This document shows, piece by piece, positions 7,758 to 26,565 of a stretch of DNA of 64,000 bases (positions are counted from its first letter, which is position 1; the number at the start of each line of letters is the position of its first letter). The DNA is taken from NCBI GenBank assembly GCA_963802935.1, contig CAWDKO010000009.1, positions 45,297 to 109,296 on the forward strand, read 5' to 3'. Below the pieces are notes generated by a model. That model was not told the origin of the DNA. It made no database searches and saw nothing but the letters and a program-made list of their open reading frames with translations. The position numbers and the translations under genes were made by a program. The stretch comes from an uncultured Solirubrobacterales bacterium (GTDB lineage Bacteria > Actinomycetota > Thermoleophilia > Solirubrobacterales > 70-9).

Positions 7758-7824
7758 GGGCCGCGAACCGGGCACCGCAACTGCGCTCGTGCCGGCAAAC
7801 CGGTCCAAACGAGGGGAGACTTTG

Positions 7825-9024
7825 GTGGCAAGGGTGCGCTTGGTGACGATCGCGGTGGCGCTGTGCGGGGCGTTGGGGATGGCAGTGCCTTCGCTGGCGG
7901 CTGCGGGCTCGATCTCGGGGACGGTCAGCGCGGAAGGCGGCGGCCCGATCCAGGGCGTCGAAGTGTGCACTCAGCCCGAGCCGTTCTCCTTCGAATCCCC
8001 CTGTGCCCAGACGAACGGCAGCGGCGCCTACAAAATCGACGGGCTGCCCGGGGCCTCCTACCACGTCGCCTTTTTCACCTACGTCAACGACCTCAACTAC
8101 GTCCCCGAGTCCTGGAACGACCAGCCGCTGAACCTCGCGGGTGGCGATCTCGTCCCGGTCGGCGCCACACAGGACGTGACCGGGATCGACGCCGAACTGG
8201 AGGAAGGCGGCATCATCGAAGGCAGCGCCGAAGACGGCGAAACCCACGGGTCCGCAGTCGGCGTCGAAGTCTGCGCGTCGAGCTTCTCCCCGGTCGAATC
8301 GTTCGCCTGTGGGATCACCGGCTCCGACGGCAGCTACGCGATCAACGCGCTGACGACGGGCGAATACACGGTCAGCTTCGAAGGCGGGAACAACGCCAAC
8401 TACCTGCGTCGCTGGTACGACGAAGCGGAATTCTCCTCGGGCGCGACTGAGGTGCCGCTGACCGCCGGCGACACCGTGACCGGGATCGACGCGGTGCTGC
8501 AGCCGGGCTCCCAGGTCCTCGGCCGGGTTACCGAAGCTGGGACGGGTGTCTCTCTGAAAGACGTCGAGGTCTGCGTGTATGACCCGCTGAAAGTCCCCTC
8601 GGTCGAATACGCCGGGCCCTGCGACTGGACCGACTCGGCCGGGAACTACGCGATCCGCAGCCTGCCCGCGAGCACCTACAAGGTCGTCTTCTCGCAGGAA
8701 CCCAACAGCCCGGAATTCATCCTCGACGACACCTACTTCGAGCAGTGGTGGCGGGGGGCGGCGTCGGTGAACGAGGCGACGCCGATCGCGCTTACGCCGC
8801 CGCAGGCGGCGATCGGGATCGACGCCCAGCTGGTGAACATGATCCAGAGGCCGAAACCCGACCCGATCCAGGTCTCGTTCGTCCCCCGGCCGCAGCCGCC
8901 GAAATCGCCGAAGAAGTGCAAGAAGGGCTTCCACAAGAAGAAGGTCAAAGGCAAGAAGCGCTGCGTGCGCAAGCACAAGAAACACGGCAAGCACCACCGC
9001 CAGGGCGGCAAGCGCAGCGGGTGA
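7825..9024 (+). CDS. paralogous secreted CarboxypepD_reg-like repeat protein with polybasic Cys-containing C-terminal tail
   Basis: GTG 7825 (or TTG 7822) after GAGGGGAG; signal peptide [21 protein letters not shown]; same repeat pattern; tail [25 protein letters not shown]. Confidence 0.6.
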
Positions 9025-11909: not shown

Positions 11910-13145
11910 TTGAGCCGACAGTTGCAAGATGCGAACCGCCTTGTTTATATTGCCTGGGTGCGCTTCGCGGGGGGCAGGACCTCGGGCATTCGGCCTTGGG
12001 CCGATCTGATGACCCGTATCCGGGCTCGCCAAGCGGAGATCGAAGCCGCGATCCTCACCCGTATCGTGGCGATCGAGGATCCCGCAGAGGTGACGGATCC
12101 AACCTATGTCGAGGGGTTGACCGCGGCGCTGGGCGCCGCGCTCGAGTATGGCTTCGCGGGAATCGAACGCAGCGAGGAGCGCACTACGCTGGTCCCGATC
12201 GCGGTGCTCGCCCAGGCTCGCCTTGCCGCACGAAACGGCGTCAGCCTCAACGCGGTGCTTCGTCGCTATCTTGCCGGCTCCACGATTGTCGCCAACTGCC
12301 TAATCGAGGAGGCCGAGTACGAGGACTGGAAAGGAGGAAAGACCCTCGGCCGGCTACTCCGCCGCCAAGCCGAGACCTTCGAGCGCCTGATCGTCGCGAT
12401 CGGCCGCGAGTACGAGCGCGCGGTCCAGGAGGATTCGCACGAGACTGCGGCTCAGCGTCGCCAGCGGCTGGTCGGGGAGCTGCTTGCGGGGAAGCGCTCC
12501 GAGGCTGCTGAGATTCGCTACGGCTTTGCGGCCTGGCATCTGGGTTTGTTCGCTGTAGGCTCTTCGGCCCTTGAGGCGATTGATGCCCTGGCGCGGTCCT
12601 TGGATGCTCATACGCTGCTTGTAGAGCAGGACGATGGGACTGTTTGGGCTTGGCTCGCTGGCGGCCGGGTGCTCGCCGGGGATTTCGAGCTCTCCCGCTA
12701 TCTCCGTCCGCACGCCCAGGTCGTACTCGCCATCGGCGAGGCCGCACCCGGGCTCGACGGCTGGCGACTCACCCATCGTCAGGCGGCAGCGGCGTTTACG
12801 ATCGCCAGGCAGGGCCAGGAGCCGCTCGTGCGCTACCGCGATGTTGCGTTGCTTGCCGCTGCGCAGCGCGATGAGCTTTTACGCGCGTCACTCGAGCAGG
12901 TCTTCCTGACGCCCCTTGTGGCTGAGCGCGACGGAGGCGCTGTGCTCCGCCTCACCCTTGAGGCCTACTTTGTCGCCGGGCGTAACGCTGCCTCGGCGGC
13001 GGCAGCGCTTGGTGTCAGCCGTCAGACAGTGAACAGCCGCCTGCGCAGCGCGGAGGAACGCCTCGGCTGCTCGCTGGAGAGCTGTGCTCCAGAGTTGCAG
13101 ACCGCCCTTCGCTTCGCTGCCCTTTCCAAACGTCAAGTCAATTGA
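11910..13145 (+). CDS. PucR/CdaR-family transcriptional regulator
   Basis: C-terminal PucR-type HTH (AGRNAASAAAALGVSRQTVNSRLRSAEERLG); true start may be ATG 12009 (MTRIRARQAE). Confidence 0.7.
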   Translation: MSRQLQDANRLVYIAWVRFAGGRTSGIRPWADLMTRIRARQAEIEAAILTRIVAIEDPAEVTDPTYVEGLTAALGAALEYGFAGIERSEERTTLVPIAVLAQARLAARNGVSLNAVLRRYLAGSTIVANCLIEEAEYEDWKGGKTLGRLLRRQAETFERLIVAIGREYERAVQEDSHETAAQRRQRLVGELLAGKRSEAAEIRYGFAAWHLGLFAVGSSALEAIDALARSLDAHTLLVEQDDGTVWAWLAGGRVLAGDFELSRYLRPHAQVVLAIGEAAPGLDGWRLTHRQAAAAFTIARQGQEPLVRYRDVALLAAAQRDELLRASLEQVFLTPLVAERDGGAVLRLTLEAYFVAGRNAASAAAALGVSRQTVNSRLRSAEERLGCSLESCAPELQTALRFAALSKRQVN

Positions 13146-13294
13146 GCACATAGGCAAGGCGCCGGACAAGATCTTGCGGCAGCATCGATAGGAGTTCCGG
13201 TTTCGGCCAATGGGAGGGCATTGTGAATGCAGTGAGGGCACGCCTTGTTGCGGGAGAAGGATCTCGCGCGTTTTTGGGCTTCAACGGGGGACGT

Positions 13295-16200
13295 ATGTGG
13301 CGGCAGTTCGCAGCGTTCGTCCTTCTCCTTGTGGCATCGACGGCCGCCTTGCCCCCAGGGCAGCCCTCGGCGGCGCCGGGTCCGTTGGCCACGTTTCCAG
13401 CGAAACGCTCCGGGCAGGAAGTGGCGGAATATGCCCGCACCTTCGACGTTTCTGCCCGGGAGGCGTCGGACACGCTGAACACACAGGAAAAAGGTGCGGG
13501 CGTCGTTGAAGTCCTTCGGCAGACGCTGGGCTCCCAATATGCAGGGATATGGTTCGACAATACGGCCGGCGAATTCGTCGTGCCTTTGGCCGCAAAAAGC
13601 GACGCAATCCGAGTTCAGCGTGCATTCAATGATCTCGGTCTAGCGCCCTCCACATTTCGTCTAGCTGACGCTCGCTTCACTTGGACGCAGCTGGAGAACA
13701 AGAAGGAACGGCTGCTCGAGCAATCCCTGTCAAAGCCTTTCCTGAACGGCGAAATCCAGGCATCGATCGACCCCAGGGCTAACCATGTCAGCGTGACGCT
13801 GTCCGGCACCGCGAATGAGGGGCGGTCAGCTGAGGTGGCAGATGCGGTGAATCAGTACGGTCCCGCAGCGGAAATCGAGAGGAAGAAGTTCAACCCCATT
13901 CCCGTGGCATGCTCTTTTGGCGACTGCGACCCGCCGCTGCGTGGGGGAGTCGCCATTACTCCCAAAAACTCGCCGGGAACCATGTGTTCGGCGGGCTTCA
14001 AGGCTCTGGGCAATGCGAACGGCAACAGATTCGTTTTGACCGCAGGCCATTGCACCTATGGAGTCTCTACATATCTCGCTCAGCCTGCTAGCAGCCCCTT
14101 TGAATCGAAAGAAATTGGACCGGTCGAAGCAACGTACACTAACGCGAGCGGCTACGACGTTGGCCTGATAAAAGCCAATGGGGGTTATTGGGATACCACG
14201 CCATGGCCGACCGAGGTGGTCTACTGGTCCCCGAAAGAATCTTATGAAGCGGTGAATCCTCATGTTGCCATTACCGCCGAAGCCTCCAGCTACATCGGAG
14301 AGTGGGCGTGTCACTCCGGCCAATCGTCGGGCACGTCGTGCGGGACGGTCAAAGAAGTCGATCTTGACCTGTCTTTTGAAACAGAAGGACGACCGCAGAT
14401 CCGTAACGACTTGAGCTTTGTGACCGGACCGGAACTCTGCATAGAAGGCGGTGACAGCGGTGGGCCGGTATTCACGGGGAACACCGCCTTGGGAATAACA
14501 TCCGCTATGGAGGGAGAACTTCCCATTCCCTGCGGGAATGGCGATTACTACAGTGAGATAACCGAAGACTCCGATCTGCTCGGTGTTCACGTCGCTTCAC
14601 GGGTCGGGGCACCTCCCTCCGCGATAACCGAAGGAGTCACATCCGTCGACTTCAGCCAGGCGACGATCAAAGGTACAGTCGATGCCAGTGGCATCCCGAC
14701 GACCTATTACTTCGAATATGGCAAAACCACCGCCTATGGCAGTGCGACCGGATCCGCAAGCGCCGGCTCGGGCTTCCTGCCCGGAACGTTCAGCAGCACC
14801 ATCGGGAGCCTCAGTCCCGGCACCAGCTACCACTACCGGATCGTCGCCACCAACTCTTCCGGCACCTCTTATGGCGCCGACCGTCAGTTCTCCACCCTGA
14901 GCCTCACCCCCAGCGAAGGGGAAGAGGACTACTCGCCCGGCCCACGCTCGACCGTCGACCCGACCAACAACTCGGTCAACGTCTTCTACCGCACCCCATC
15001 GGGCAGCCTCGGCCACCGCTGGCACGCGCCCTGGGAATCGGGCTGGGGCAGCGAGACGCTGGCGGGCTCACTGTCCTCTGAGCCCCATCTGATCGTCGAC
15101 AGGGACGGCGGTATCAACGTCTTCTACCGCACCCCCTCGGGCACCCTCGGCCACAACTGGTGGGAAGCCGGCGGCACCGGCTGGGGCTCGGAGAGCCTCG
15201 GCGGCTCGCTCGCGGCAAACGCCGAACCGCACGCGATCGTCGACTCCAACAAGGTCGTCAACGTCTTCTACCGCACCCCATCGGGCAGCCTCGGCCACCG
15301 CTGGCACGCGCCCTGGGAATCGGGCTGGGGCAGCGAGACGCTGGCGGGCTCGGTTGCCTCAGAACCGCACGCGATCGTCGACAAGGACGGCGGCATCAAC
15401 GTCTTCTACCGCACCCCCTCGGGCACCCTCGGCCACAACTGGTGGGAAGCCGGCGGCACCGGCTGGGGCTCGGAGAGCCTCGGCGGCTCGCTCGCGGCAA
15501 ACGCCGAACCGCACGCGATCGTCGAACCCAACAACTCGGTCCACGTCTTCTACCGCACCGCCTCGGGCAGCCTCGGCCACCGCTGGCACGCGCCCTGGGA
15601 ATCGGGCTGGGGCAGCGAGACGCTGGCGGGCTCACTCGACTCGAGCGCCGAACCGCACGCGATCGTCGACAAGAACGGCGGCGTCAACGTCTTCTACCGC
15701 ACCCCCTCGGGCACCCTCGGCCACAACTGGTGGGAAGTCGGCAACAACGTCTGGGGCTCGGAGGATCTCGGCGGCTCGCTCGCCTCTGAGCCGCACGCGA
15801 TCGTCGACCCGACCAACAACTCGGTCAACGTCTTCTACCGCACCCCATCGGGCAGCCTCGGCCACCGCTGGCACGCGCCCTGGGAATCGGGCTGGGGCAG
15901 CGAGACGCTGGCGGGCTCACTGTCCTCTGAGCCCCATCTGATCGTCGACAGGGACGGCGGTATCAACGTCTTCTACCGCACCCCCTCGGGCACCCTCGGC
16001 CACAACTGGTGGGAAGCCGGCGGCACCGGCTGGGGCTCGGAGAGCCTCGGTGGCTCGCTCGCACCGACCCCCCCGAGCGCCACCACCGGCGCCGCCAGCG
16101 GGGTCGGTGCAAACGAAGCCAAACTCGAAGGAACCGTGAACCCAAATGGCTCACCCACTAGCTACTACTTCGAATACGGTCCGACGACCTCTTATGGCTC

Positions 16201-16978
16201 AAAAGCGCCGGCCTCTGCGGCAGAAGCTGGCTACGGCACCGCCGCCGTCGCGGTCAGCCAGGCCTTGAGCGGTCTCTCCCCGAGCACGACCTACCACTAC
16301 CGACTGGTCGCCACTGGCCCGGAAGGCACTGCCACCGGTCAGGACAAAACCTTTGCAACCAAAGCGGCGACGGTCGCGAGCCAGCTGGCGGCGCTTCCCG
16401 TCACAGAGCCCTTTGACGGCAGCTCGGGATCGCTCGCCAACTTCGGCTCGAAATGGTCCACGCTGGGCTGGGCCGCGGGAGGCTCTCCCAAGGGCGCGGA
16501 CACCACCACGGGCTGGGGCCCGGTCAACGCCTTCTCGACCATCAACGGGGCTTACTTCAACACGTCAGTCTCCGCCGGCGGCCTGGGCTCTGCCGTGGTC
16601 GCGACCATGGCCGTCAACCCGGGCTTGACCGAACGCCACTTCTCGCTCTGGCTGAACATGTCGACCCCCGGCGGCACCAAAGCCGGCTATGAGCTGCGCT
16701 TCCAGAACACTGCTGCGAACGCCTACGAAGTCCGACTCCTCAAGTGGGTCGGCGCCAGCGAAGCCCAGCTCGCGTCCAAAACCGGCTATTCCTTCTCCAA
16801 CGGCAGCTCGTTCGCGCTCGTCGACCAGGGGGCCACTGTCTCGGCCTGGACCGACACCGGCTCTGGCTTCGCCCAACAGCTGAGCGCTGCCGACTCGGCG
16901 TTCTCGAGCGGATATGCAGGGCTCCAGGGCGCCGGGAGCACCACGCGCCTGAGGAACTTCAAGGCGGGGGGGATTTAG
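13295..16978 (+). CDS. secreted multidomain protein: alpha-lytic/streptogrisin-type S1 protease, Fn3-like, 8 Trp-rich propeller blades, Fn3-like, ConA/LamG-like C-terminal domain
   Basis: Signal peptide MWRQFAAFVLLLVASTAA; pro-region YAGIWFDNTAGEFVVP; triad LTAGHC / YDVGLI / GDSGGPV; YYFEYG..YG..Y.YR Fn3-like modules; 8 repeats NVFYRTPSG.LGH.W....GWGSE.L.GSL..EPH.IV. Confidence 0.8.
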   Translation: MWRQFAAFVLLLVASTAALPPGQPSAAPGPLATFPAKRSGQEVAEYARTFDVSAREASDTLNTQEKGAGVVEVLRQTLGSQYAGIWFDNTAGEFVVPLAAKSDAIRVQRAFNDLGLAPSTFRLADARFTWTQLENKKERLLEQSLSKPFLNGEIQASIDPRANHVSVTLSGTANEGRSAEVADAVNQYGPAAEIERKKFNPIPVACSFGDCDPPLRGGVAITPKNSPGTMCSAGFKALGNANGNRFVLTAGHCTYGVSTYLAQPASSPFESKEIGPVEATYTNASGYDVGLIKANGGYWDTTPWPTEVVYWSPKESYEAVNPHVAITAEASSYIGEWACHSGQSSGTSCGTVKEVDLDLSFETEGRPQIRNDLSFVTGPELCIEGGDSGGPVFTGNTALGITSAMEGELPIPCGNGDYYSEITEDSDLLGVHVASRVGAPPSAITEGVTSVDFSQATIKGTVDASGIPTTYYFEYGKTTAYGSATGSASAGSGFLPGTFSSTIGSLSPGTSYHYRIVATNSSGTSYGADRQFSTLSLTPSEGEEDYSPGPRSTVDPTNNSVNVFYRTPSGSLGHRWHAPWESGWGSETLAGSLSSEPHLIVDRDGGINVFYRTPSGTLGHNWWEAGGTGWGSESLGGSLAANAEPHAIVDSNKVVNVFYRTPSGSLGHRWHAPWESGWGSETLAGSVASEPHAIVDKDGGINVFYRTPSGTLGHNWWEAGGTGWGSESLGGSLAANAEPHAIVEPNNSVHVFYRTASGSLGHRWHAPWESGWGSETLAGSLDSSAEPHAIVDKNGGVNVFYRTPSGTLGHNWWEVGNNVWGSEDLGGSLASEPHAIVDPTNNSVNVFYRTPSGSLGHRWHAPWESGWGSETLAGSLSSEPHLIVDRDGGINVFYRTPSGTLGHNWWEAGGTGWGSESLGGSLAPTPPSATTGAASGVGANEAKLEGTVNPNGSPTSYYFEYGPTTSYGSKAPASAAEAGYGTAAVAVSQALSGLSPSTTYHYRLVATGPEGTATGQDKTFATKAATVASQLAALPVTEPFDGSSGSLANFGSKWSTLGWAAGGSPKGADTTTGWGPVNAFSTINGAYFNTSVSAGGLGSAVVATMAVNPGLTERHFSLWLNMSTPGGTKAGYELRFQNTAANAYEVRLLKWVGASEAQLASKTGYSFSNGSSFALVDQGATVSAWTDTGSGFAQQLSAADSAFSSGYAGLQGAGSTTRLRNFKAGGI

Positions 16979-16980
16979 GG
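14906..16980 (+). repeat. 2,075-bp direct repeat, copy 1 (3' part of the first protease gene)
   Basis: Aligns at a constant offset of 3,515 bp with 18421..20495; the translations differ at only three residues (SLSSEPHLIV vs SVASEPHAIV, DRDGG vs DRNGG). Confidence 0.9.
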
Positions 16981-17037
16981 ACATGGCTAATTTCGTCGGA
17001 CTATCGGCTGTCAACAAGCCATCGAGAGGGATCTGAG

Positions 17038-20000
17038 ATGAAAAGAGCACCGAACAACGTGGGGAGCAGCCGGTACAGGACGACGGTGGTCGGACTGGTG
17101 GCGTTGGTGGTTTCTCTCCCCTCTCTTTTTTCCTCGGCCGCGGCGTTGGCGAGTCCAAGGGCCTTTGACGTAGGCGATCTTGATGTACGCAGGGCTGAAG
17201 TACGCGAATACAAGCGCGAATTCGGAGTTTCCGAGTTGCACGCCGAAGAAAGCCTGGAAACCCAGCAGACCGGGCTTGACATGAACCTCGTCGCTCAGCT
17301 CGAATCACTGCTCGGCGCTGACTACGCGGGCGTTTGGTTCGATAATGCCACTGGGGACTTCGTCATTCCGGTGACTCCAGGGGCCGATCGTGACGCTGTT
17401 GTCCAGTCACTCTTCGCAGCGGGCCTTTCAGGGCATTTTCGCTTTACCCCAGCACAGGCAAGCTGGCGGCAGTTGCAGTCCACCCAGAACCAAATCAATG
17501 CGTCGCTGGGCGAGCAGCTTCGCCATGGCACGGTCGAGACCTCGCTCGACCCGCAGACCAATGCGGTACTGGTCAAAACCGCCGATGATATAGGATCAGC
17601 GGGCGCTGCTAGGGCCCAGAACCTTGCGCGGGGCTTTCAGGGTGAAGTCGAGCTCCGCGAGGGGACTGCAAGGGCCCTGAGCGGCCAGTTGGAGGGATGC
17701 AACGATGTCTTCTGCGGACCCTCACTCAGGGGTGGCGTACAGATCTTTGGTTCCAATGCCAAAAACTCCGAAGATTCTTGCACCGCAGGGTTTCGCGCGG
17801 TCAGTCCCACCGGTAACCGGTACCTGCTTACTGCTGGGCACTGTGTGGTGGAAATAGGGGAAGTCGAACCAGCCACGACGACTTGGTACAGCAAAAATGA
17901 CTCCCTTCAAACTTGGAAAATCGGCGACGTCGAGCAGGCAGTATCTCCGATTGATGATTGGGCGAAGATCAGTGTCAATGGGAGCGAATGGGACAAAGGC
18001 CAGTCGGCGAATGAAATCGTCTACTACGGAGAACCTATTTTCGATGCGAACGGGAAAATGATCGGCAAATCGCCTACGGTCGATTCGAACTATGCAATAA
18101 CCGGCGAATCCTCAAGTGTTAAAGGGACTTTTGTCTGTCACTCGGGAATCATGACCGGAACGACCTGTGGACAGGTGACTGCAGTTGGAGTGTCTCACAC
18201 CTGGGCGGGAAACTGGACTATCAATAACTTGAACGAAGCCGTTGGAGTCTGCAGTATCCCGGGTGACAGCGGCGGGCCCTGGTTCAGCGGACACATTGCG
18301 CTGGGCATGCACACTGGTTCGGTCGTTGAATCCAAAACATGCTCGGGCGCCCGGTTCTACACGGACATCACCAGGGCGACCAGTGCACTGGGGGTGTCGA
18401 TCGCCTCCACTGCCTTCCCAACCCCCAGCGAAGGGGAAGAGGACTACTCGCCCGGCCCACGCTCGACCGTCGACCCGACCAACAACTCGGTCAACGTCTT
18501 CTACCGCACCCCATCGGGCAGCCTCGGCCACCGCTGGCACGCGCCCTGGGAATCGGGCTGGGGCAGCGAGACGCTGGCGGGCTCGGTTGCCTCAGAACCG
18601 CACGCGATCGTCGACAGGGACGGCGGTATCAACGTCTTCTACCGCACCCCCTCGGGCACCCTCGGCCACAACTGGTGGGAAGCCGGCGGCACCGGCTGGG
18701 GCTCGGAGAGCCTCGGCGGCTCGCTCGCGGCAAACGCCGAACCGCACGCGATCGTCGACTCCAACAAGGTCGTCAACGTCTTCTACCGCACCCCATCGGG
18801 CAGCCTCGGCCACCGCTGGCACGCGCCCTGGGAATCGGGCTGGGGCAGCGAGACGCTGGCGGGCTCGGTTGCCTCAGAACCGCACGCGATCGTCGACAAG
18901 GACGGCGGCATCAACGTCTTCTACCGCACCCCCTCGGGCACCCTCGGCCACAACTGGTGGGAAGCCGGCGGCACCGGCTGGGGCTCGGAGAGCCTCGGCG
19001 GCTCGCTCGCGGCAAACGCCGAACCGCACGCGATCGTCGAACCCAACAACTCGGTCCACGTCTTCTACCGCACCGCCTCGGGCAGCCTCGGCCACCGCTG
19101 GCACGCGCCCTGGGAATCGGGCTGGGGCAGCGAGACGCTGGCGGGCTCACTCGACTCGAGCGCCGAACCGCACGCGATCGTCGACAAGAACGGCGGCGTC
19201 AACGTCTTCTACCGCACCCCCTCGGGCACCCTCGGCCACAACTGGTGGGAAGTCGGCAACAACGTCTGGGGCTCGGAGGATCTCGGCGGCTCGCTCGCCT
19301 CTGAGCCGCACGCGATCGTCGACCCGACCAACAACTCGGTCAACGTCTTCTACCGCACCCCATCGGGCAGCCTCGGCCACCGCTGGCACGCGCCCTGGGA
19401 ATCGGGCTGGGGCAGCGAGACGCTGGCGGGCTCACTGTCCTCTGAGCCCCATCTGATCGTCGACAGGAACGGCGGTATCAACGTCTTCTACCGCACCCCC
19501 TCGGGCACCCTCGGCCACAACTGGTGGGAAGCCGGCGGCACCGGCTGGGGCTCGGAGAGCCTCGGTGGCTCGCTCGCACCGACCCCCCCGAGCGCCACCA
19601 CCGGCGCCGCCAGCGGGGTCGGTGCAAACGAAGCCAAACTCGAAGGAACCGTGAACCCAAATGGCTCACCCACTAGCTACTACTTCGAATACGGTCCGAC
19701 GACCTCTTATGGCTCAAAAGCGCCGGCCTCTGCGGCAGAAGCTGGCTACGGCACCGCCGCCGTCGCGGTCAGCCAGGCCTTGAGCGGTCTCTCCCCGAGC
19801 ACGACCTACCACTACCGACTGGTCGCCACTGGCCCGGAAGGCACTGCCACCGGTCAGGACAAAACCTTTGCAACCAAAGCGGCGACGGTCGCGAGCCAGC
19901 TGGCGGCGCTTCCCGTCACAGAGCCCTTTGACGGCAGCTCGGGATCGCTCGCCAACTTCGGCTCGAAATGGTCCACGCTGGGCTGGGCCGCGGGAGGCTC

Positions 20001-20493
20001 TCCCAAGGGCGCGGACACCACCACGGGCTGGGGCCCGGTCAACGCCTTCTCGACCATCAACGGGGCTTACTTCAACACGTCAGTCTCCGCCGGCGGCCTG
20101 GGCTCTGCCGTGGTCGCGACCATGGCCGTCAACCCGGGCTTGACCGAACGCCACTTCTCGCTCTGGCTGAACATGTCGACCCCCGGCGGCACCAAAGCCG
20201 GCTATGAGCTGCGCTTCCAGAACACTGCTGCGAACGCCTACGAAGTCCGACTCCTCAAGTGGGTCGGCGCCAGCGAAGCCCAGCTCGCGTCCAAAACCGG
20301 CTATTCCTTCTCCAACGGCAGCTCGTTCGCGCTCGTCGACCAGGGGGCCACTGTCTCGGCCTGGACCGACACCGGCTCTGGCTTCGCCCAACAGCTGAGC
20401 GCTGCCGACTCGGCGTTCTCGAGCGGATATGCAGGGCTCCAGGGCGCCGGGAGCACCACGCGCCTGAGGAACTTCAAGGCGGGGGGGATTTAG
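17038..20493 (+). CDS. paralogous secreted S1 protease, 8-blade propeller, Fn3-like, ConA/LamG-like protein
   Basis: ATG 17038 after GAGAGGG; signal peptide VVGLVALVVSLPSLFSSAAALA; triad LTAGHC / DDWAKI / GDSGGPW; diverged protease half; C-terminal 690 aa nearly identical to the upstream gene. Confidence 0.8.
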   Translation: MKRAPNNVGSSRYRTTVVGLVALVVSLPSLFSSAAALASPRAFDVGDLDVRRAEVREYKREFGVSELHAEESLETQQTGLDMNLVAQLESLLGADYAGVWFDNATGDFVIPVTPGADRDAVVQSLFAAGLSGHFRFTPAQASWRQLQSTQNQINASLGEQLRHGTVETSLDPQTNAVLVKTADDIGSAGAARAQNLARGFQGEVELREGTARALSGQLEGCNDVFCGPSLRGGVQIFGSNAKNSEDSCTAGFRAVSPTGNRYLLTAGHCVVEIGEVEPATTTWYSKNDSLQTWKIGDVEQAVSPIDDWAKISVNGSEWDKGQSANEIVYYGEPIFDANGKMIGKSPTVDSNYAITGESSSVKGTFVCHSGIMTGTTCGQVTAVGVSHTWAGNWTINNLNEAVGVCSIPGDSGGPWFSGHIALGMHTGSVVESKTCSGARFYTDITRATSALGVSIASTAFPTPSEGEEDYSPGPRSTVDPTNNSVNVFYRTPSGSLGHRWHAPWESGWGSETLAGSVASEPHAIVDRDGGINVFYRTPSGTLGHNWWEAGGTGWGSESLGGSLAANAEPHAIVDSNKVVNVFYRTPSGSLGHRWHAPWESGWGSETLAGSVASEPHAIVDKDGGINVFYRTPSGTLGHNWWEAGGTGWGSESLGGSLAANAEPHAIVEPNNSVHVFYRTASGSLGHRWHAPWESGWGSETLAGSLDSSAEPHAIVDKNGGVNVFYRTPSGTLGHNWWEVGNNVWGSEDLGGSLASEPHAIVDPTNNSVNVFYRTPSGSLGHRWHAPWESGWGSETLAGSLSSEPHLIVDRNGGINVFYRTPSGTLGHNWWEAGGTGWGSESLGGSLAPTPPSATTGAASGVGANEAKLEGTVNPNGSPTSYYFEYGPTTSYGSKAPASAAEAGYGTAAVAVSQALSGLSPSTTYHYRLVATGPEGTATGQDKTFATKAATVASQLAALPVTEPFDGSSGSLANFGSKWSTLGWAAGGSPKGADTTTGWGPVNAFSTINGAYFNTSVSAGGLGSAVVATMAVNPGLTERHFSLWLNMSTPGGTKAGYELRFQNTAANAYEVRLLKWVGASEAQLASKTGYSFSNGSSFALVDQGATVSAWTDTGSGFAQQLSAADSAFSSGYAGLQGAGSTTRLRNFKAGGI

Positions 20494-20495
20494 GG
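18421..20495 (+). repeat. 2,075-bp direct repeat, copy 2 (3' part of the second protease gene)
   Basis: See copy 1; identity starts at ACCCCCAGCGAAGGGGAAGAGG and ends 2 nt after the stop codon. Confidence 0.9.
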
Positions 20496-20638: not shown

Positions 20639-20682
20639 GATGCCGGAGGAGGGACTCGAACCCCCGACACGCGGATTATGAT
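20639..20682 (-). repeat. att-type direct repeat: duplicated 3' half of tRNA-Met
   Basis: GATGCCGGAGGAGGGACTCGAACCCCCGACACGCGGATTATGAT is identical to 26490..26533 (tRNA nt 33-74 plus 2 flanking nt). Confidence 0.9.
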
Positions 20683-20858
20683 GCTGCCGCAGCGGTTGCC
20701 GGGGTTTGCGGCTGTCAGAGCCTTTTGGCGCTAGAGAGCCAATCCGGCGGGTCGGGCCTCTCCTCGTTTTCGGCTATTTCCGGGTGTCTCCTTGCCACCC
20801 CCTTGCCACCCTGCGCTTTTAGGGGCGAAAGCTCAAGCAATCTGAGAGTCTTCCGCCA

Positions 20859-21788
20859 ATGACGAGCAGGCTGACGATCTATTACGGGCAGATATGGCTA
20901 GAGCAGGCGACGCTGTTTTCCGAGTACCCACTTCGGGATGCCGTTGAAGGAGCGGGGCCGGTCAACCGCTACAACCACGATTGGCTGATCGGCAACCTCT
21001 CGGTCGACGAAGGGCGACAAATCCTTGTTGGGAAGCTGGGGTACCCGGAGACTGAACAGCGAACGCGAGAGGACTACGACCCCGCCGAGCAGGCATTTGT
21101 TGAGCAGAATGTGGAGGTGCCCGACGCGGCTTCGGCCGCGTTTGCGCTCAACTATGCATCGGGGGCGCTGGCGTTCGAAGGGACTGACCGCATCGGGCCA
21201 AGGGGCTTCGTCAACCATTTGGTCGCTCTTATGAGAACTGTGGACGAGGGCTTCAAAGGACAGCTAATCCGTATTGCCACCGAGTACCGCGAGTTCCTTG
21301 CGGCGGTGGACAAGGTCACCCGGGTTAGCTTTGAGGTGATCCCCACGAACCCCCGGGATCGCAACATTTTCAAACCGCTGGACGTGGGCATGAAGGCGGC
21401 GAATGCCTCTCGCGAGCGAGTGACCCTAGAGAACGATGAAGGACTCGTCATGCAGCCTCCTGATAGCCGGGACGAAACGACCGACAACCCCGCCATCATG
21501 GGAATAGAGATGAATGACGAGGGCTATGGCAAGGGCTACAAAATCGATGCCAAACGCCAAGGCCGGGACTATCGCTTCGACTCTGAGCAGGGCGGCGGCC
21601 TGCTTCGGGATGTAGTTGAGGGCGCACCAGAAGATGGCGAGTACCGGACGAGTGCGCTGGTCGAGCATCTTGAAGAGAAACGTCTCGATGAGGAAGGGAT
21701 CGGCGACCGCCAGTCTGAGACGGACGAGCCATCTGCGGAGGCGGGAGGGGACGAGCCGCCTGCTGAGGCCGCGCAGGGAGAGGGCTAG
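20859..21788 (+). CDS. hypothetical soluble protein, 309 aa, acidic C-terminal tail; no family recognised
   Basis: Long ORF within the island; stop is 3 nt before the start of the next ORF (operon). Confidence 0.6.
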   Translation: MTSRLTIYYGQIWLEQATLFSEYPLRDAVEGAGPVNRYNHDWLIGNLSVDEGRQILVGKLGYPETEQRTREDYDPAEQAFVEQNVEVPDAASAAFALNYASGALAFEGTDRIGPRGFVNHLVALMRTVDEGFKGQLIRIATEYREFLAAVDKVTRVSFEVIPTNPRDRNIFKPLDVGMKAANASRERVTLENDEGLVMQPPDSRDETTDNPAIMGIEMNDEGYGKGYKIDAKRQGRDYRFDSEQGGGLLRDVVEGAPEDGEYRTSALVEHLEEKRLDEEGIGDRQSETDEPSAEAGGDEPPAEAAQGEG

Positions 21789-21791
21789 CTT

Positions 21792-22385
21792 GTGGCGGTG
21801 ACTTCGCACCGCGACAAGGCTGTGACGCCGCCTGAGGAGGGCGGACAGGATTTCTACGAAGACACGCGCTTCTGGAAGGCGGCGCGCGCGTATGGATTGG
21901 ATCAGTTGATCCTGACCTGGGGCGTTGGAGTCGCGCTCGCGTGTGCAGCGGGCGTTCTGTTTCTTTTCCTCCACGGCGATCTGCCTACTAGCGGCGTCAA
22001 AGCTTTGGCCGTGTCCTACGTCAGCCTGGGGGCCGCGCTATTTGGCATCGTGCTTGCGGGGTTCGCCGTAGTCGCGGCGTTCTTTGACCGCGACTACGTT
22101 GCCAAGCTCCGTGAAGCTGGGACGCTAGGGGACTCGCTATTCGGTTTCTGGTGGGTGGCTGCAATAACGGTTCTAGCCGTGCTTGCCAGCGTTGGACTCA
22201 CTGTCGCCGCATTCGCAGGGGCATCGAAGCCAGTAATGGCTGTTGCGCTCGGGATCGCGACCACGCTATTCGTCGCCAGCCTGGGGGAGGCGCTGTCGCT
22301 CGTTGGCACCATCATGCGGCACGCTCTCTACCGGAGCGAGCTGGCGCGACGCGATGACATTCGCATTACGCAGCCAAAGCCATAG
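21792..22385 (+). CDS. hypothetical integral membrane protein, 197 aa, about 4 TM helices
   Basis: GTG 21792; hydrophobic segments GVGVALACAAGVLFLFL, ALAVSYVSLGAALFGIVLAGFAVVAAFF, FGFWWVAAITVLAVLASVGLTVAAFA, VMAVALGIATTLFVASLGEALSLVG. Confidence 0.6.
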   Translation: MAVTSHRDKAVTPPEEGGQDFYEDTRFWKAARAYGLDQLILTWGVGVALACAAGVLFLFLHGDLPTSGVKALAVSYVSLGAALFGIVLAGFAVVAAFFDRDYVAKLREAGTLGDSLFGFWWVAAITVLAVLASVGLTVAAFAGASKPVMAVALGIATTLFVASLGEALSLVGTIMRHALYRSELARRDDIRITQPKP

Positions 22386-22639
22386 GCCTCGGCTGCTCCA
22401 TCTCTATGGCCTCGTCCAAAAAGGCGGCGCTTCCCACGCCTGCGTCCATCAGATGGATGTAGGTCTTGAGGGTGAAGCCGGGATCGGCATGGCCTAGCCA
22501 AGCCTGAACCTGCTTCACGTTCCGGCCCGCCTCAAAAAGCAAGCTGGCGCAGGTGTGGCGGAACGTGTGGAAGGACACGGTTGACCGCGTTCTTCTCTTG
22601 CCCTTGACCTCCACCTCTACCTTGAACCCGGCCCCGATG
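22366..22639 (-). pseudogene. tyrosine recombinase/integrase, C-terminal fragment only
   Basis: FHTFRHTCASLL (HxxR box) and LGHADPGFTLKTYIH (catalytic Tyr box); reading frame runs into the IS3 end at 22640; no N-terminal part on the other side of the IS. Confidence 0.7.
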
Positions 22640-22668
22640 TGAGCCGGACCAGGTCCACGGAGACTTGT

Positions 22669-23577
22669 TTAGTTGGATCCAATCTTCATCTTGAGGGAGA
22701 TCAGTTGATCCCTCTGTCGAACGTATAGGCCCTCGAACTCAGCGGGTGAGACGTCGCCGAGGGATTCGTGCAGGCGCTCGTTGTTGAACCAGGAGACGTA
22801 TTCGACGACGGCCAGCTCCAGCTGCGAGCGAGAGCGCCAGACCCGGTCGGCGATCAGCTCGGTCTTGAAGGTGTCGACGAAGCTCTCGGCCATCGCGTTG
22901 TCATAGGCATCGCCGACGGCGCCGACCGAGGCGAGGACGCCGTGGTCGGTGAGCGTCTGGGTGTAGTCGGCCGAGGTGTATTGAGAGCCGCGGTTGGTGT
23001 GGGCCACGAGTTGGAAGTCGGCGCCGGGCTCGCGTTGGCCCAGTGCCATCCGCAGCGCGTCGAGCACCAGGTCGGTGCGCATGTGGGAGGCCAGCTGCCA
23101 GCCGACGACCTTGCGCGAGAAGGCGTCGATCACGAAGGAGAAGAACGAAGCGCCCTCCCAGGAGCGCAAGTAGGTGAAGTCCCCGACCCAGAGACGGTCG
23201 GGGCCTGGCGCTGTGAAGTCGCGCTGGACCAGGTCGGGGCGGCGCAGGGCCGAGGGGTCCGGTGTTGTCGTGCGCCAGGGGCGCCCACGGCGCTTGGCGC
23301 CTTGGATCCCGGCCTCTCGCATCAGCCGGGCCACCCGGCCGCGGCCGACCTCCTCGCCGGCGCGCTGCAGGGCGATCCACATCCGCCGGTAGCCGTAGGC
23401 GCAGTAGTTGGCCTCGTGGATCTCGGCGATCAGCTCGAGCAGGCGCTCGTCCTCGAGGGCGCGAGCGGAGCGCTTGTCCTTGGCGCGCTGGTAGTAGGCG
23501 GAGGCCGACACCTCCGGGGTCTTGCAGATCGGCTCGACCCCGAAGCGCTCGCGATGCTCCTCGATGTAGGAGCTCAC
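22669..23577 (-). CDS. IS3-family transposase OrfB (DDE integrase core)
   Basis: YGYRRM...PDRLWVGDFTYL...HTNRGSQYTS...YDNAMAESF... rve/DDE domain motifs. Confidence 0.85.
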   Translation of the reverse strand: MSSYIEEHRERFGVEPICKTPEVSASAYYQRAKDKRSARALEDERLLELIAEIHEANYCAYGYRRMWIALQRAGEEVGRGRVARLMREAGIQGAKRRGRPWRTTTPDPSALRRPDLVQRDFTAPGPDRLWVGDFTYLRSWEGASFFSFVIDAFSRKVVGWQLASHMRTDLVLDALRMALGQREPGADFQLVAHTNRGSQYTSADYTQTLTDHGVLASVGAVGDAYDNAMAESFVDTFKTELIADRVWRSRSQLELAVVEYVSWFNNERLHESLGDVSPAEFEGLYVRQRDQLISLKMKIGSN

Positions 23578-23876
23578 TTCGTTCGGCGTGGGTCGAGCTC
23601 GGCGGCGAAAAAGGCAGACGCCGACTTCAAGATGTCGTTGGCCCTGCGCAGCTCGCGCACCTCACCGCGTAGGGCCTTCAGCTCCTCGCGCTCGGAGCTG
23701 TCGAGCAGGTCCTTGCGTTTGCCCTCATCGGCTTCGGCCTGGCGCACCCACTTGCGCAGGGTCTCGGGGTGGATCCCGAGGTCGCGCGCTACGTGAGCGA
23801 TGGGGCGGCCGGAGTCGGCGACCATCCGGGCCCCGCGATCGAGCAGCTCATCGGGGTATTTCTTCTGTCGTGGCAT
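23574..23876 (-). CDS. IS3-family transposase OrfA (HTH)
   Basis: MPRQKKYPDELLDRGARMV...LRKWVRQAE...LRRANDILKSASAFFAAELD is typical IS3 OrfA. Confidence 0.8.
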   Translation of the reverse strand: MPRQKKYPDELLDRGARMVADSGRPIAHVARDLGIHPETLRKWVRQAEADEGKRKDLLDSSEREELKALRGEVRELRRANDILKSASAFFAAELDPRRTK

Positions 23877-24018
23877 GGCTTGGGAGTTCCCTTCTTCCAG
23901 GTAGGAATCCTGGTTTCTGGGTCTCCGTCAAACCTGGTCCGGCTCACCTTGCTGGCGGCTTTGCGCTTGGCGTCGTCGGGCATTCCACGGAGCCTAACCC
24001 CTGATCCCAGTCCCGAAG

Positions 24019-24642
24019 CTACAGGCCAAGCTCCTGCGCGTGGGCAAATGACTCTGCGAACTTCTTCGATCGGTGACTGAAATCAAGCTCTCCCATGGTG
24101 TTTCGATCAGTCCAGTAGTAGCCCTCCAGCTGGCCTACCGGCTCACCCGCAATGTCGAGCTTAAAGCTCCCGTGGTGCACCTCGCTACGCTCACGGACAG
24201 AGGCTCGCGGCGTGTTTCTGTACTGCGCGACCAACTGGTATTGCCCGCAGCCGTCATCCTCGATCGTTGCAGTGGTCGAGCATGACTTTGACTCTTTGGT
24301 AATCAGATTGGCGGTCACGCTCCAAAACGTCTGGCGGATGACCAAGTAGACCTCCGGGTCGGGGTCCCTGCGTTGGCCCGTCTCGGGGTTGATCCAGTTT
24401 GAGGCGAGTCGGCCACGCCAGGTGCCACGCAGGTCGGGCCGCTTACTAAGCCCGCGGCCAACTTTTGGAAGTCGCCATAGGAAGTGGTCGAAGGCGAGAA
24501 CGAGCAGACCGGCCACTGAACTGGCTGCTCCGATAGGGGCGAACAGTTCAGTGGTCGGCAGGCCGCGAGCCAGAAAGGCGATCAGATAGACGCCTGCAAC
24601 GACAAGGACAATGGCCTGAATGAAGACCCGGGACGGTCGCAT
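24019..24642 (-). CDS. CBASS effector, Cap15-like (N-terminal 2 TM plus beta-strand-rich C-terminal domain)
   Basis: ATG overlaps the cyclase stop (TGATG); two TM helices (VFIQAIVLVVAGVYLIAFLA, IGAASSVAGLLVLAFDHFLW) then GTWRGRL.S...IRQTFWSV...YRNTP...HHGSFKL...LEGYYWTDR pattern. Confidence 0.6.
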   Translation of the reverse strand: MRPSRVFIQAIVLVVAGVYLIAFLARGLPTTELFAPIGAASSVAGLLVLAFDHFLWRLPKVGRGLSKRPDLRGTWRGRLASNWINPETGQRRDPDPEVYLVIRQTFWSVTANLITKESKSCSTTATIEDDGCGQYQLVAQYRNTPRASVRERSEVHHGSFKLDIAGEPVGQLEGYYWTDRNTMGELDFSHRSKKFAESFAHAQELGL

Positions 24643-25562
24643 CACTCGAAGCCGACGTAGTTCCAGGCCTTTGAAGCGAAGTCGTGGGCGTCTTGGTAGC
24701 TCCAATTCTGGCCGCTCCAGAACAGGAACTTGATCGCATTCGCCTCAAGCCAATCGTCTGAGGTCACGCAGCCGTCGTTCAGCGTCTCGTTGAAGATGTG
24801 CGCAAGGGCGGCTCGAACGCGGGCTTTCCAAGTTGCGCCGTCGAATTTCGAGTTTGGCACGTTCCAGACTGAGGACTCGATCAAAAAGGAGGGAACCTCT
24901 TTGATGATGCCCTCGTCAACCATCTCGTTCTCCAAGCGCTTCAAGATGCGCACGACACGCTTGTAGCGACGCGAGGTTGCGTCGTTCTTTCTCGTGCCCT
25001 GTTCGAGGTGCTGCTTCGGGTAGTTAACGATGCGCTCGGCGGGATTCCGGTCGTTGTAGAGCCGGATGCCATCGTTATAGCCCGTGCGGCTGGTCCAGGT
25101 GCGCTCGGTAACACAGGGAACTACGTCGGCCGGCAGGCGGCCCGTGCTCTCTGCGACCCGAATCGCCTTGCTTCCACGGTCGACTTCCCCTGCACTGAAA
25201 TACGCGATGAGGGCGTGCTCGACGTCATCCTTGAAACCGGCCAGCGTGGCGTCGCCCTCATACGGCGTCACGCCGACATCGGCCATGGTCAGCCCCTCCG
25301 CCGCATGGATGAAGCGGTTCTTGAAGAACGTCGTCAACTCGACCGCGATGTCGACGTCGCTGTCGCGGACGACATTGGTGAAGTTGGGGTAAGACCCCTT
25401 CGCGTAGACCTCGAAGTCGTACTTGCTGAGCCGATCACTTGCTCGGAGGGCGTCTCCGATCGCGCGACAGGTGCGTCTGTACTTCTCTTCCTCGCTGTCG
25501 GAGGCTTTGCCTTTCCAACTCGTGAATCTGGCCTCCCAGTCACGGGCTACCTGCGTTGACAT
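24642..25562 (-). CDS. CBASS cGAS/DncV-like nucleotidyltransferase (CD-NTase, SMODS family)
   Basis: KGSYPNFTNVVRDSDVDIAV (GS...DxD), third acidic residue LPADVVPC, C-terminal SFLIESSVWNVP; ATG 25562 after GGAGA. Confidence 0.8.
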   Translation of the reverse strand: MSTQVARDWEARFTSWKGKASDSEEEKYRRTCRAIGDALRASDRLSKYDFEVYAKGSYPNFTNVVRDSDVDIAVELTTFFKNRFIHAAEGLTMADVGVTPYEGDATLAGFKDDVEHALIAYFSAGEVDRGSKAIRVAESTGRLPADVVPCVTERTWTSRTGYNDGIRLYNDRNPAERIVNYPKQHLEQGTRKNDATSRRYKRVVRILKRLENEMVDEGIIKEVPSFLIESSVWNVPNSKFDGATWKARVRAALAHIFNETLNDGCVTSDDWLEANAIKFLFWSGQNWSYQDAHDFASKAWNYVGFE

Positions 25563-25786
25563 TGATCTCCCTTCGCGCTTCCGCCCGTGACTGCCCATGC
25601 CTGCCAGCTGATAATTCCGCCGACACTCTTGTTAACTTTCAACTTCACGAGGTTCGCGTTGATTTCTAGGTTGGTACGCATCAGAACCTCTAAGGCTACG
25701 ATTTCTCAGCGGCGGAAAGATCACTCGTCACTGGCCGCAAATTGCGGCTTTCTCGGGGGCGTTTTGAATCGAGGTATCCTTTAGCC

Positions 25787-25978
25787 ATGGCGCACGCCAC
25801 CAAAGCCGACAATGCAGCTACCGAGCGTCAAGCAGCGATAGAGCGGACCCGAGGCATGTTCGCCCACCTGGCGCCCGGCGAAAGCTTGGCCGACGAGCTA
25901 ATCGCTGGTCGGCGCGCGGAAGCCCGCGCGGAAGATCGCGAGGCGGCCGACGAAGCCCGGCGCCTCCGTGGCAAGTAG
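25787..25978 (+). CDS. vapB: VapB-type antitoxin
   Basis: 63-aa ORF overlapping the PIN gene start; C-terminal LADELIAGRRAEARAEDRE resembles VapB tails. Confidence 0.55.
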   Translation: MAHATKADNAATERQAAIERTRGMFAHLAPGESLADELIAGRRAEARAEDREAADEARRLRGK

Positions 25979-26387
25979 CGAGACGCCGGCATCGGTCCTC
26001 GATGCCTCGGCGCTGCTTGCTCATCTCAATGAGGAGAAAGGCGCATCGGTTGTCCGGCGCGCCATGGCGGACGGCGCAGCTATCAGCATCGTCAATTGGA
26101 TAGAGGTCCTGTCGAAAATCGCCCAACGTGGCGAAGACCCTGAACTTGCCGCTGCCGAGATGAAGGGCGCCGGACTCATCGGCAGTGTCGTGACCATCGA
26201 GGCCGTGACCGAACAGGATTCGATCGAAATTGCCCGCTTGCGGCCCTTGACCAAGAAGCAAGGACTTTCACTCGCGGATCGCGCTTGCTTGGCCCTTGCA
26301 ATTCGTCTTGACGTTCCTACCGTGACCGGCGATCGGGACTGGCAGGCCCTTCCCGGGGTAGGCGTTGCGGTCAAGCTCATCCGCTGA
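25968..26387 (+). CDS. vapC: PIN-domain ribonuclease toxin
   Basis: VLDASALLA...NWIEV...SLADRACLALA...TGDRDW carry the conserved acidic PIN residues. Confidence 0.8.
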   Translation: MASSETPASVLDASALLAHLNEEKGASVVRRAMADGAAISIVNWIEVLSKIAQRGEDPELAAAEMKGAGLIGSVVTIEAVTEQDSIEIARLRPLTKKQGLSLADRACLALAIRLDVPTVTGDRDWQALPGVGVAVKLIR

Positions 26388-26491
26388 TGCGGTGGTTCTT
26401 AAGGCCAGACCCTTGCCACATTCCTTGCCACCCCCGTCAAATTGGAGGCCAGCGGAGGGCCGGATCGGCTGCATTCCGCGCTGCCAAGCGA

Positions 26492-26565
26492 TGCCGGAGG
26501 AGGGACTCGAACCCCCGACACGCGGATTATGATTCCGCTGCTCTAACCAGCTGAGCTACTCCGGC
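26492..26565 (-). tRNA. tRNA-Met (anticodon CAT; tRNA-Ile2/lysidine not excluded), 74 nt, CCA not encoded
   Basis: Hand-folded cloverleaf: GCCGGAG-TA-GCTC-AGCTGGTTA-GAGC-A-GCGGA-ATCATAA-TCCGC-GTGTC-GGGGG-TTCGAGT-CCCTC-CTCCGGC-A. Confidence 0.9.

Follow-up and report, generated by a model that had tools for sequence, protein, structure and literature searches.

Why would a bacterium keep side by side two secreted proteases whose catalytic heads have diverged widely and whose long tails are almost the same? The question is raised by a 64,000-nucleotide (nt) stretch of DNA from an uncultured Solirubrobacterales bacterium (the window), in which two adjacent genes, A and B, each encode a signal peptide, an alpha-lytic-type pro-region, an S1 protease domain, eight Trp-rich repeats, a fibronectin type III (Fn3)-like module, and a C-terminal domain of 205 amino acids, in that order. 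Our answer, to which we give a little better than an even chance, is that A and B would be extracellular, pro-region-dependent S1E proteases that their tails tether to an insoluble, most probably glycan-bearing substrate, with two cleavage preferences, a tail kept alike by gene conversion, and control by a PucR-type regulator. Homologous proteins are cited below as P00xx and homologous loci as L00x.

The tandem pair of open reading frames (ORFs) described in a sequence-only reading of this DNA is present on the plus strand, and the domains called there (signal peptide, alpha-lytic-type pro-region, complete S1 domain, blades of the PLL/DUF346 type, and ConA-like jelly roll) all hold in Pfam, PDB sequence, and AlphaFold2 (AF2)/Foldseek analyses (Table 1). 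A GGGGGA ribosome-binding site lies 4 nt upstream of the ATG of gene A, the stop codon of A and the start of the co-oriented gene B are 59 nt apart, and a terminator scan of this gap gave no terminator-like site. In the protein collection each product forms a cluster of its own, and both derive from one contig of 285,653 bp. Neither an LPXTG motif nor a C-terminal membrane anchor is present in A or B, and sortase anchoring was rejected for want of the LPXTG motif. A Pfam scan of the two proteins detected no SLH, LysM, or CWB cell-wall-binding domain and no ricin/CBM13 module, and a search for further paralogues of A and B elsewhere in the window found none. The G+C content is 0.58 to 0.61 in the protease heads (13000-15000 and 17000-18000), 0.67 to 0.70 in the tails, and 0.70 to 0.73 in the surrounding genome.

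Table 1. Features of the protease gene pair and its surroundings, in window coordinates
Feature	Position	Strand	Description or basis
Gene A	13295-16978	+	1227 amino acids; pre-pro S1 protease and binding tail; ORF/translation; identical to database protein P0001
Gene A signal peptide (about amino acids 1-28) and alpha-lytic-type pro-region (to about amino acid 213)	13295-13924	+	Sequence reading; homology to the pre-pro region of B
Gene A S1 protease, streptogrisin type (S1E), H252/D288/S388	13925-14629	+	Pfam Trypsin E 5.6e-10; PDB 2sfa, SGPA, SGPB; motifs
Gene A extra Fn3-like module, amino acids 446-540	14630-14914	+	Weak Pfam fn3 matches below cut-off; no counterpart in B
Gene A eight-bladed PLL/DUF346-type β-propeller, amino acids 541-925	14915-16069	+	Blade parsing, AF2, Foldseek, tandem repeat finder
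Gene A second Fn3-like module, amino acids 926-1022	16070-16360	+	Pfam Pur_ac_phosph_N E 1.5e-5, below cut-off
Gene A C-terminal ConA-like β-sandwich, amino acids 1023-1227	16361-16975	+	AF2 and Foldseek; no existing sequence family
Gene B	17038-20493	+	1151 amino acids; pre-pro S1 protease and the same tail; ORF/translation; database protein P0131
Gene B signal peptide, pro-region, and S1 protease, H268/D307/S411	17038-18429	+	PDB sequence matches; motifs
Gene B propeller	18430-19584	+	Part of tail copy 2
Gene B Fn3-like module	19585-19875	+	Part of tail copy 2
Gene B ConA-like domain	19876-20490	+	Part of tail copy 2
Tail copy 1: linker, propeller, Fn3-like, ConA-like, stop codon	14906-16980	+	Near-identical to 18421-20495
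Tail copy 2: same content	18421-20495	+	Near-identical to 14906-16980
PucR/CdaR-type transcriptional regulator	11910-13145	+	Pfam HTH_30 (PF13556) E 2.5e-12; GGDEF_2 E 7.7e-6
Candidate cis element GCACAT-N7-GCGCC	13146-13163	+	Regulator-protease spacer
IS3-type transposase	22669-23577	-	Within the 5.85-kb segment
Type I CBASS oligonucleotide cyclase	24642-25598	-	PADLOC E 1e-93
Type I CBASS Cap15/2TM effector	24019-24705	-	E 1e-64

The catalytic part of both proteins is built like that of a classical secreted protease. Each N terminus has a short basic n-region followed by a hydrophobic run of 15 to 17 amino acids. Amino acids 59 to 190 of B match the alpha-lytic pro-region structure 2pro (E value, 1.8e-4), and the pro-region of A aligns with B across the 2pro-matching part, with 34% identity between the two pre-pro regions. 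The Pfam prodomain model gave no match to A or B at an E value of ≤0.1, and at the same threshold Pfam Trypsin matched A and had no match in B. In PDB sequence searches the head of A matched 2sfa (E value, 2e-7), SGPA, and SGPB (range of E values, 2e-7 to 1e-5), and that of B matched 2sfa (E value, 3.7e-12), SGPB, a Glu-specific protease, and alpha-lytic protease. The triad motifs TAGHC, D, and GDSGGP are intact in both heads, in the order His, Asp, Ser. By these matches and motifs, the heads of A and B are proteases of the streptogrisin/alpha-lytic type (MEROPS S1E), predicted to be active from the intact triad. With the streptogrisins and alpha-lytic protease, whose structures are the closest solved ones, they share the pre-pro organization, the TAGHC and GDSGGP motifs, and the disulfide pattern. 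The classical enzymes differ from A and B in that they have a mature length of about 185 to 200 amino acids and no tail or a single small one, and their identity to the two heads is low. Streptogrisin C, for example, carries a C-terminal chitin-binding domain.

The two heads are only distantly related, with 34% identity over 465 amino acids. The nearest head to that of A is found in P0022 (47%) and the nearest to that of B in P0084 (41.5%), which has ricin-type tails. A scan of genome contigs with the head of A gave only a Parvibaculaceae locus, at 29% identity. Since each is nearer to a head elsewhere than to the other, A and B are not recent mutual duplicates in this part.

Behind the heads the situation is reversed. 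The two tail copies, offset by 3515 nt, differ at 11 positions and without gaps, an identity of 99.47% over 2073 nt. The matching stretch opens with the linker TPSEGEEDY, which follows immediately on the final nonhomologous module of either head, and runs to 2 nt beyond the stop codon. Of the 11 mismatches, ten fall into a single 21-nt patch in blade 1 (15070-15090), in which A resembles its own blade 7 and B its own blade 3; one difference lies outside the patch. DNA that is 99.5% identical from linker to stop, while the heads are 34% identical, points to gene conversion, and the pattern indicates a recent, homology-limited conversion between tails that would already have been related, together with conversion within the repeat array. 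Both identity figures agree with the earlier description of diverged heads and homogenized tails. At L010, where the genes form a tandem triplet, the heads of P0066 and P0069 are 59% identical and their tails 51%; the tails are no closer than the heads, and no tail homogenization is thus seen at that locus.

Could the homogenized tails be a product of assembly instead, a metagenome assembler or polisher having equalized two similar paralogue tails or duplicated one of them? The window does come from a metagenome-derived contig, the proteins are recorded from that contig only, and an alanyl-tRNA synthetase ORF elsewhere in it falls short of its relatives in length, a possible sign of indel errors. 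Yet the two tails do differ: the ten clustered differences form an in-frame patch with sensible blade variants, a further substitution stands apart from it, both frames stay open over 2 kb, and the boundaries match the limits of homology, as gene conversion predicts. We consider an assembly artifact very improbable. The synthetase ORF itself (35789-37894) encodes 701 amino acids, and relatives of about 875 to 880 amino acids cover only 91% of it; from its shortness, a frameshift or an assembly indel may lie near its 3' end. The synthetase is 89 to 94% identical to those of metagenome-assembled genomes named as Solirubrobacterales bacterium, by which the organism is placed in this order (Thermoleophilia, Actinomycetota).

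The first module that the two tails share is a β-propeller. Pfam DUF346 (PF03984) matches it above cut-off in both proteins (E values, 2.8e-16 in A and 6.4e-20 in B), PF26607 Beta-prop_PLL is present in precomputed Pfam domain lists, and PDB sequence searches align it with the Photorhabdus lectins PHL, PLL, and PLL2 to PLL5 at E values of about 1e-19 (PHL and PLL5, about 3e-19). An AF2 model computed from nine sequences (predicted local distance difference test [pLDDT], 91.3; predicted template modeling score [pTM], 0.89) has 32 strands and hence eight four-stranded blades. The strand PRSTVD before blade 1 occupies the place of the last strand that blade 8 lacks, which fits the usual closure of propellers. 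Foldseek places PHL and PLL-PLL5 at the top for this model, with an E value of about 1e-22, template modeling (TM) scores of 0.70 (query normalized) and 0.78 (target normalized), and 26 to 30% identity. By sequence and modeled fold, the propeller is a member of the PLL/PHL family with eight blades; the domain searches proposed earlier as a check on whether the repeats are propeller blades thus came out as PLL/PHL blades in Pfam DUF346, PDB sequence, AF2, and Foldseek comparisons alike.

Blade parsing gives eight repeats of 46 to 48 amino acids in two alternating subtypes (...SLGHRWHAPWESGWGSETLAGS... and ...TLGHNWWEAGGTGWGSESLGGS...), so that the number and the alternation had been read correctly before and the length, put at 46 to 49 amino acids, had not. 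Identity is 89% between blades of like parity and 70% between blades of unlike parity; at the DNA level, tandem repeat finder describes the propeller as a 282-nt two-blade unit in 3.9 copies with 89 to 90% identity. The PLL family as described consists of seven-bladed propellers (PMC5584973, PMC6943638), and in a survey of repetitive propellers a two-blade unit had been the source of amplification in just one case (PMC9218822). Eight blades are also present in the nine closest long homologues, and about seven in short relatives of about 700 amino acids. From their repeat patterns, the propeller arrays of A, B, and P0012 look like further amplifications of a two-blade unit. What A and B share with the Photorhabdus lectins is the blade sequence family, the four-stranded W-motif blades, and the modeled fold. 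Those lectins, about 370 amino acids long, stand alone with seven blades and have fucose or O-methylated sugars as ligands (PMC5584973, PMC6943638), whereas in A and B the eight blades form four two-blade units, are built into a protease, and have the side chains of the fucose and galactose sites replaced. A role of the propeller as a substrate gate, as in prolyl oligopeptidase or tricorn-like enzymes, was rejected, since a linker, and in A also a whole Fn3 module, separates it from the protease.

An Fn3-like module after the propeller had been proposed before, and it is there in both genes; for A the count of one was incomplete, as an additional module between protease and propeller had been missed. 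There are accordingly two of these YYFEYG...YHYR modules in A, 47% identical to each other, and one in B. Modules of homologues are 50 to 66% identical to the extra module of A and 50 to 64% identical to its second one. The matches of fn3, Pur_ac_phosph_N, and PhoD_N to the modules of A and B all lie below the curated Pfam cut-offs, and the Fn3-like assignment therefore follows from family resemblance, homologous modules in relatives being listed as fn3 and PF16656 in precomputed Pfam.

The C-terminal domain could be placed by structure prediction. Its 205 amino acids gave no PDB sequence match, either as a single sequence or as a 23-sequence profile, a Pfam scan of all 23 family members gave no match, and hhalign found no similarity to the LamG_3 domain that stands at the same position in P0013. 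The AF2 model (pLDDT, 95.7; pTM, 0.92) has 15 strands of at least 3 residues. Foldseek returned 218 PDB matches for it at an E value of ≤1e-3, with carbohydrate-binding module (CBM) family CBM66 at the top (E value, 5e-7; TM score, 0.65 query normalized and 0.79 target normalized), followed, among the top matches listed, by L-type lectins (Emp46p/VIP36/ERGIC-53), galectins, GH16, and LNS domains. As modeled, the domain is a ConA-like β-sandwich of about 200 amino acids. Its best structural match, the CBM66 of Bacillus subtilis SacC (PDB 4azz, 4b1l, and 4b1m), has the same kind of sandwich and a similar size, but identity is 17 to 19% and sequence and profile searches detect no similarity. CBM66 binds fructans (levan) and is attached to a glycoside hydrolase (GH). 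Its family is sizeable: 755 representative clusters came out of an exhaustive profile search, 239 of them at an E value of ≤1e-30. Among 150 proteins listed with it, which reach 3437 amino acids, many have at least two copies, up to eight, and its partners in a sample of ten were S8 subtilase, FG-GAP, NHL, and Fn3 domains.

From these parts a mode of action may be proposed. The signal peptides would direct A and B to export by the Sec system. Alpha-lytic protease is folded by its pro-region, which is then cleaved off, and by analogy with it the N-terminal pro-region, whose homology is shown above, would fold the protease and then be removed. The mature enzyme, of about 900 to 1000 amino acids, would retain the tail of eight-bladed propeller, Fn3-like spacer, and ConA-like sandwich, and this tail would serve as a multivalent targeting module that concentrates the protease on a microbial or fungal cell wall, on glycoprotein-rich necromass, or on a matrix polymer. 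Identity of 34% between the heads, each of which is nearer to heads on other tails, suggests that the pair would bring two cleavage preferences to one address, while homology-dependent gene conversion between the neighboring genes would keep the shared tail identical. That two specificities are delivered to one target is a reasonable inference from this anatomy.

Targeting by the tail is supported by the ways in which its parts occur elsewhere. The S1 head family carries interchangeable tails, the C-terminal domain also follows S8 subtilases, and the propeller is found on other putative enzymes at L004. There, two proteins of about 720 amino acids (L004:251-2434 and L004:2849-4984), encoded in one cluster with a regulator and a protease and upstream of them, have a signal peptide, an N-terminal domain with the sequences WEVWNEPN and INELGWP, and eight PLL-type blades; the two sequences are similar to those of the acid/base and the nucleophile in clan GH-A hydrolases. 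Searches of Pfam, NCBIfam, and PDB for a glycoside hydrolase family, whether with one sequence or with a profile of two, yielded no more than nonsignificant clan GH-A matches, located at the two catalytic motifs (E values: GH53, 0.009; GH39, 0.06; GH17, 0.2 to 0.7; PslG, 0.96).

A precedent for such an arrangement is protease I of Rarobacter faecitabidus, described as a yeast-lytic S1 protease with a C-terminal mannose-binding CBM13 (Shimoi et al. 1992, as cited in PMC1458353). Protease I and the glucanases of C. cellulans share this module, which is thus also found on glycanases of the lytic system, and loss of CBM13 lowers the lysis of living yeast (PMC1458353). Like A and B, protease I is an actinobacterial secreted chymotrypsin-fold protease with a C-terminal noncatalytic module of lectin type, and some relatives of A and B are ricin tailed. 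A and B differ from it in having no CBM13 and, in its place, a tail of about 700 amino acids made up of propeller, Fn3-like, and ConA-like modules.

Several observations weigh against the reading given here. In PHL, the fucose site lies between adjacent blades and consists of a Thr and two Trp (T194, W199, and W214), and the galactose site consists of an Arg, a Glu, and two other Trp (PMC5584973). We rebuilt the PHL numbering from a HMMER alignment, checked it on 29 residues named in PMC5584973, and then aligned the PHL blades to those of the window. At the fucose-site positions all eight blades have Pro/Ala, Gly, and a gap; the Arg and Glu of the galactose site are replaced by Ile/Val and Asn/His, and only the HxW and GW tryptophans are conserved. 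With these side chains replaced, PHL gives no guide to the ligand, which may be something other than a sugar. The C-terminal domain appears, by the searches made, to be unrelated in sequence to CBM66 and LamG_3, and the ConA-like fold occurs in protein-binding domains too. The NHL and FG-GAP tails found in the family are general interaction scaffolds, the glycoside hydrolase assignment at L004 is a putative one drawn from motifs and nonsignificant matches (E values, 0.009 to 1), and the signal peptides of A and B were judged by eye rather than with a predictor. Of the earlier proposal that the tail consists of carbohydrate-binding modules, the resemblance in fold and family stands, and it is on this resemblance that we infer carbohydrate binding; the PHL site residues, replaced in all eight blades, and the C-terminal domain, with no sequence link to CBM or lectin families, do not bear the proposal out.

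The same observations give substance to a different role for the tail, namely that propeller and ConA-like domain form an exosite that recruits protein substrates or partners rather than glycans, so that the tail sets the substrate range. The replaced sugar-site residues, the sister proteins with NHL and FG-GAP propellers, and a ConA-like domain with no sequence link to any CBM would all suit it. Yet the nearest relatives of both modules in sequence or structure are lectins or CBMs, ricin-type tails occur in the family, and the blades are rich in Trp (24 in 382 amino acids), aromatic-rich surfaces being typical of carbohydrate sites. We regard a protein-directed exosite as unlikely.

The tail might also bind a glycan of the producer, its own cell-wall glycopolymers, and so display the proteases on the surface for feeding or envelope maturation instead of directing them to foreign targets. 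An actinobacterium has no outer membrane to retain its exoenzymes, any retention of A and B would have to be noncovalent as they have no covalent anchor motif, the modules are multivalent repeats, and the family has many and varied members in a single order. These points fit such self-anchoring, but the occurrence of the same propeller on a putative glycoside hydrolase and of the same heads with ricin-type modules resembles substrate-targeting CBMs, and the SLH, LysM, and CWB domains were not detected. Self-anchoring is, in our judgment, improbable. Tethering to an external, most probably glycan-bearing substrate is the reading that we retain for what follows.

The architecture was surveyed in 120 listed homologues, nearly all metagenomic, with the named ones belonging to Solirubrobacterales. 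The S1 head is shared by 95 of these, S1 head plus PLL propeller by 32, and the C-terminal domain by 18. The full domain order is found in eight (P0001 to P0004 and P0006 to P0009, P0001 being the product of gene A), at 41 to 54% identity, and in B. Other members of the head family end in NHL, FG-GAP, ricin, or LamG_3 modules, with ricin-type modules (PF00652 or PF14200) on P0084, P0089, P0095, and P0099. The tail itself varies, with about 12 blade matches in P0007, two tandem ConA-like copies in P0002, and FG-GAP/VCBS-like GDWNxDGxDT repeats at the end of P0009. Source annotations of the homologues read only "S1 family peptidase" or "hypothetical protein," and a literature search found no paper on this protease-propeller-Fn3-ConA combination and nothing relevant on DUF346 with a protease, on Solirubrobacterales proteases, or on streptogrisin C. 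The architecture had been called unusual; it recurs among relatives, and there is precedent for a protease joined to a lectin, so that what stands of this claim is that the particular combination was met in no paper found.

The pair belongs to a known kind of enzyme, the protease tethered to a lectin-like module, and combines its domains in a new way. Three modest novelties come with it: a PLL propeller of eight blades made of two-blade units, a sizeable ConA-like family without a Pfam model, and a very recent homogenization of tails between divergent heads. A bolder view is that Solirubrobacterales have a combinatorial toolkit of secreted enzymes in which a few heads (S1, S8, and GH-like) are recombined with swappable PLL, NHL, FG-GAP, ricin, and ConA-like tails, that the window has caught one such exchange nearly in progress, and that propeller and ConA-like domain would be new types of lectin or CBM with ligands of their own. 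We put this forward tentatively and think it doubtful as a whole.

The regulator reported alongside the proteases was confirmed as a PucR type, with its C-terminal PucR helix-turn-helix and GGDEF-like middle domain both above Pfam cut-offs (HTH_30, 46.9 bits against a cut-off of 27; GGDEF_2, 26.6 bits against 24.5). Its start codon is uncertain, as homologues align from about amino acids 23 to 43 onward. In four of eight loci (the window, L004, L008, and L009), nonsyntenic ones included, a related regulator lies directly upstream of the protease in the same orientation, 106 to 257 nt away, and the regulators of these loci are 40 to 52% identical over their full length, that of the window being 40 to 48% identical to the other three; no such regulator lies upstream in L001, L003, L005, and L007. 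The regulator is not incidental to the protease pair, and it probably controls A and B. The candidate cis element in the spacer is the single match to GCACAT-N7-GCGCC in the window (0.08 expected), and among the fetched loci the pattern occurs elsewhere only in L008 and L009, once each, in the equivalent spacer; the pattern was drawn up post hoc, from the very spacers that contain it. L004 lacks it, and the spacer there showed no convincing conservation when aligned with that of the window. A small ricin-domain protein is encoded downstream of the regulator and protease at L004.

L003, L004, L008, and L010, from related genomes, have one to three S1-PLL genes in a common interval between thrB and gltB (lysA-hom-thrC-thrB ... 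Tricorn_N/Cupin_2 ... gltB), the triplet of L010 among them, and the regulator is present in some of these loci and absent from others. The changing number of S1-PLL genes per interval points to a variable locus with rapid turnover.

Two other parts of the window adjoin or resemble the protease region. About 145 nt past the stop codon of gene B begins a 5.85-kb low-G+C segment flanked by a 44-nt exact direct repeat (20639-20682 and 26490-26533) that equals the 3' half of a tRNA-Met gene (26492-26565, minus strand). The segment, at 20639-26541, looks like an integrated element, and the IS3-type transposase and the two genes of a type I cyclic oligonucleotide-based antiphage signaling system (CBASS) in Table 1 fall within this range. 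Upstream, two adjacent plus-strand ORFs (6507-7757 and 7723-9024) with repeated CarboxypepD_reg and SdrD_B-like domains probably encode further secreted or surface repeat proteins.

These findings leave current understanding standing and overturn nothing. If the tails bind glycans, the PLL family would extend from stand-alone seven-bladed lectins of insect pathogens to eight-bladed modules in enzymes of soil actinobacteria, and the C-terminal domain would define a ConA-like family without a Pfam model, 755 representative clusters in size and often repeated several times within one very large secreted protein. The gene pair would then also be a clear natural example of targeting modules that are shuffled and homogenized between neighboring enzyme genes, and two proteases aimed at one address could serve as lytic reagents. 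Thermoleophilia are abundant in soil and little studied, and their exoenzymes bear on the turnover of microbial necromass and possibly on the lysis of other microbes.

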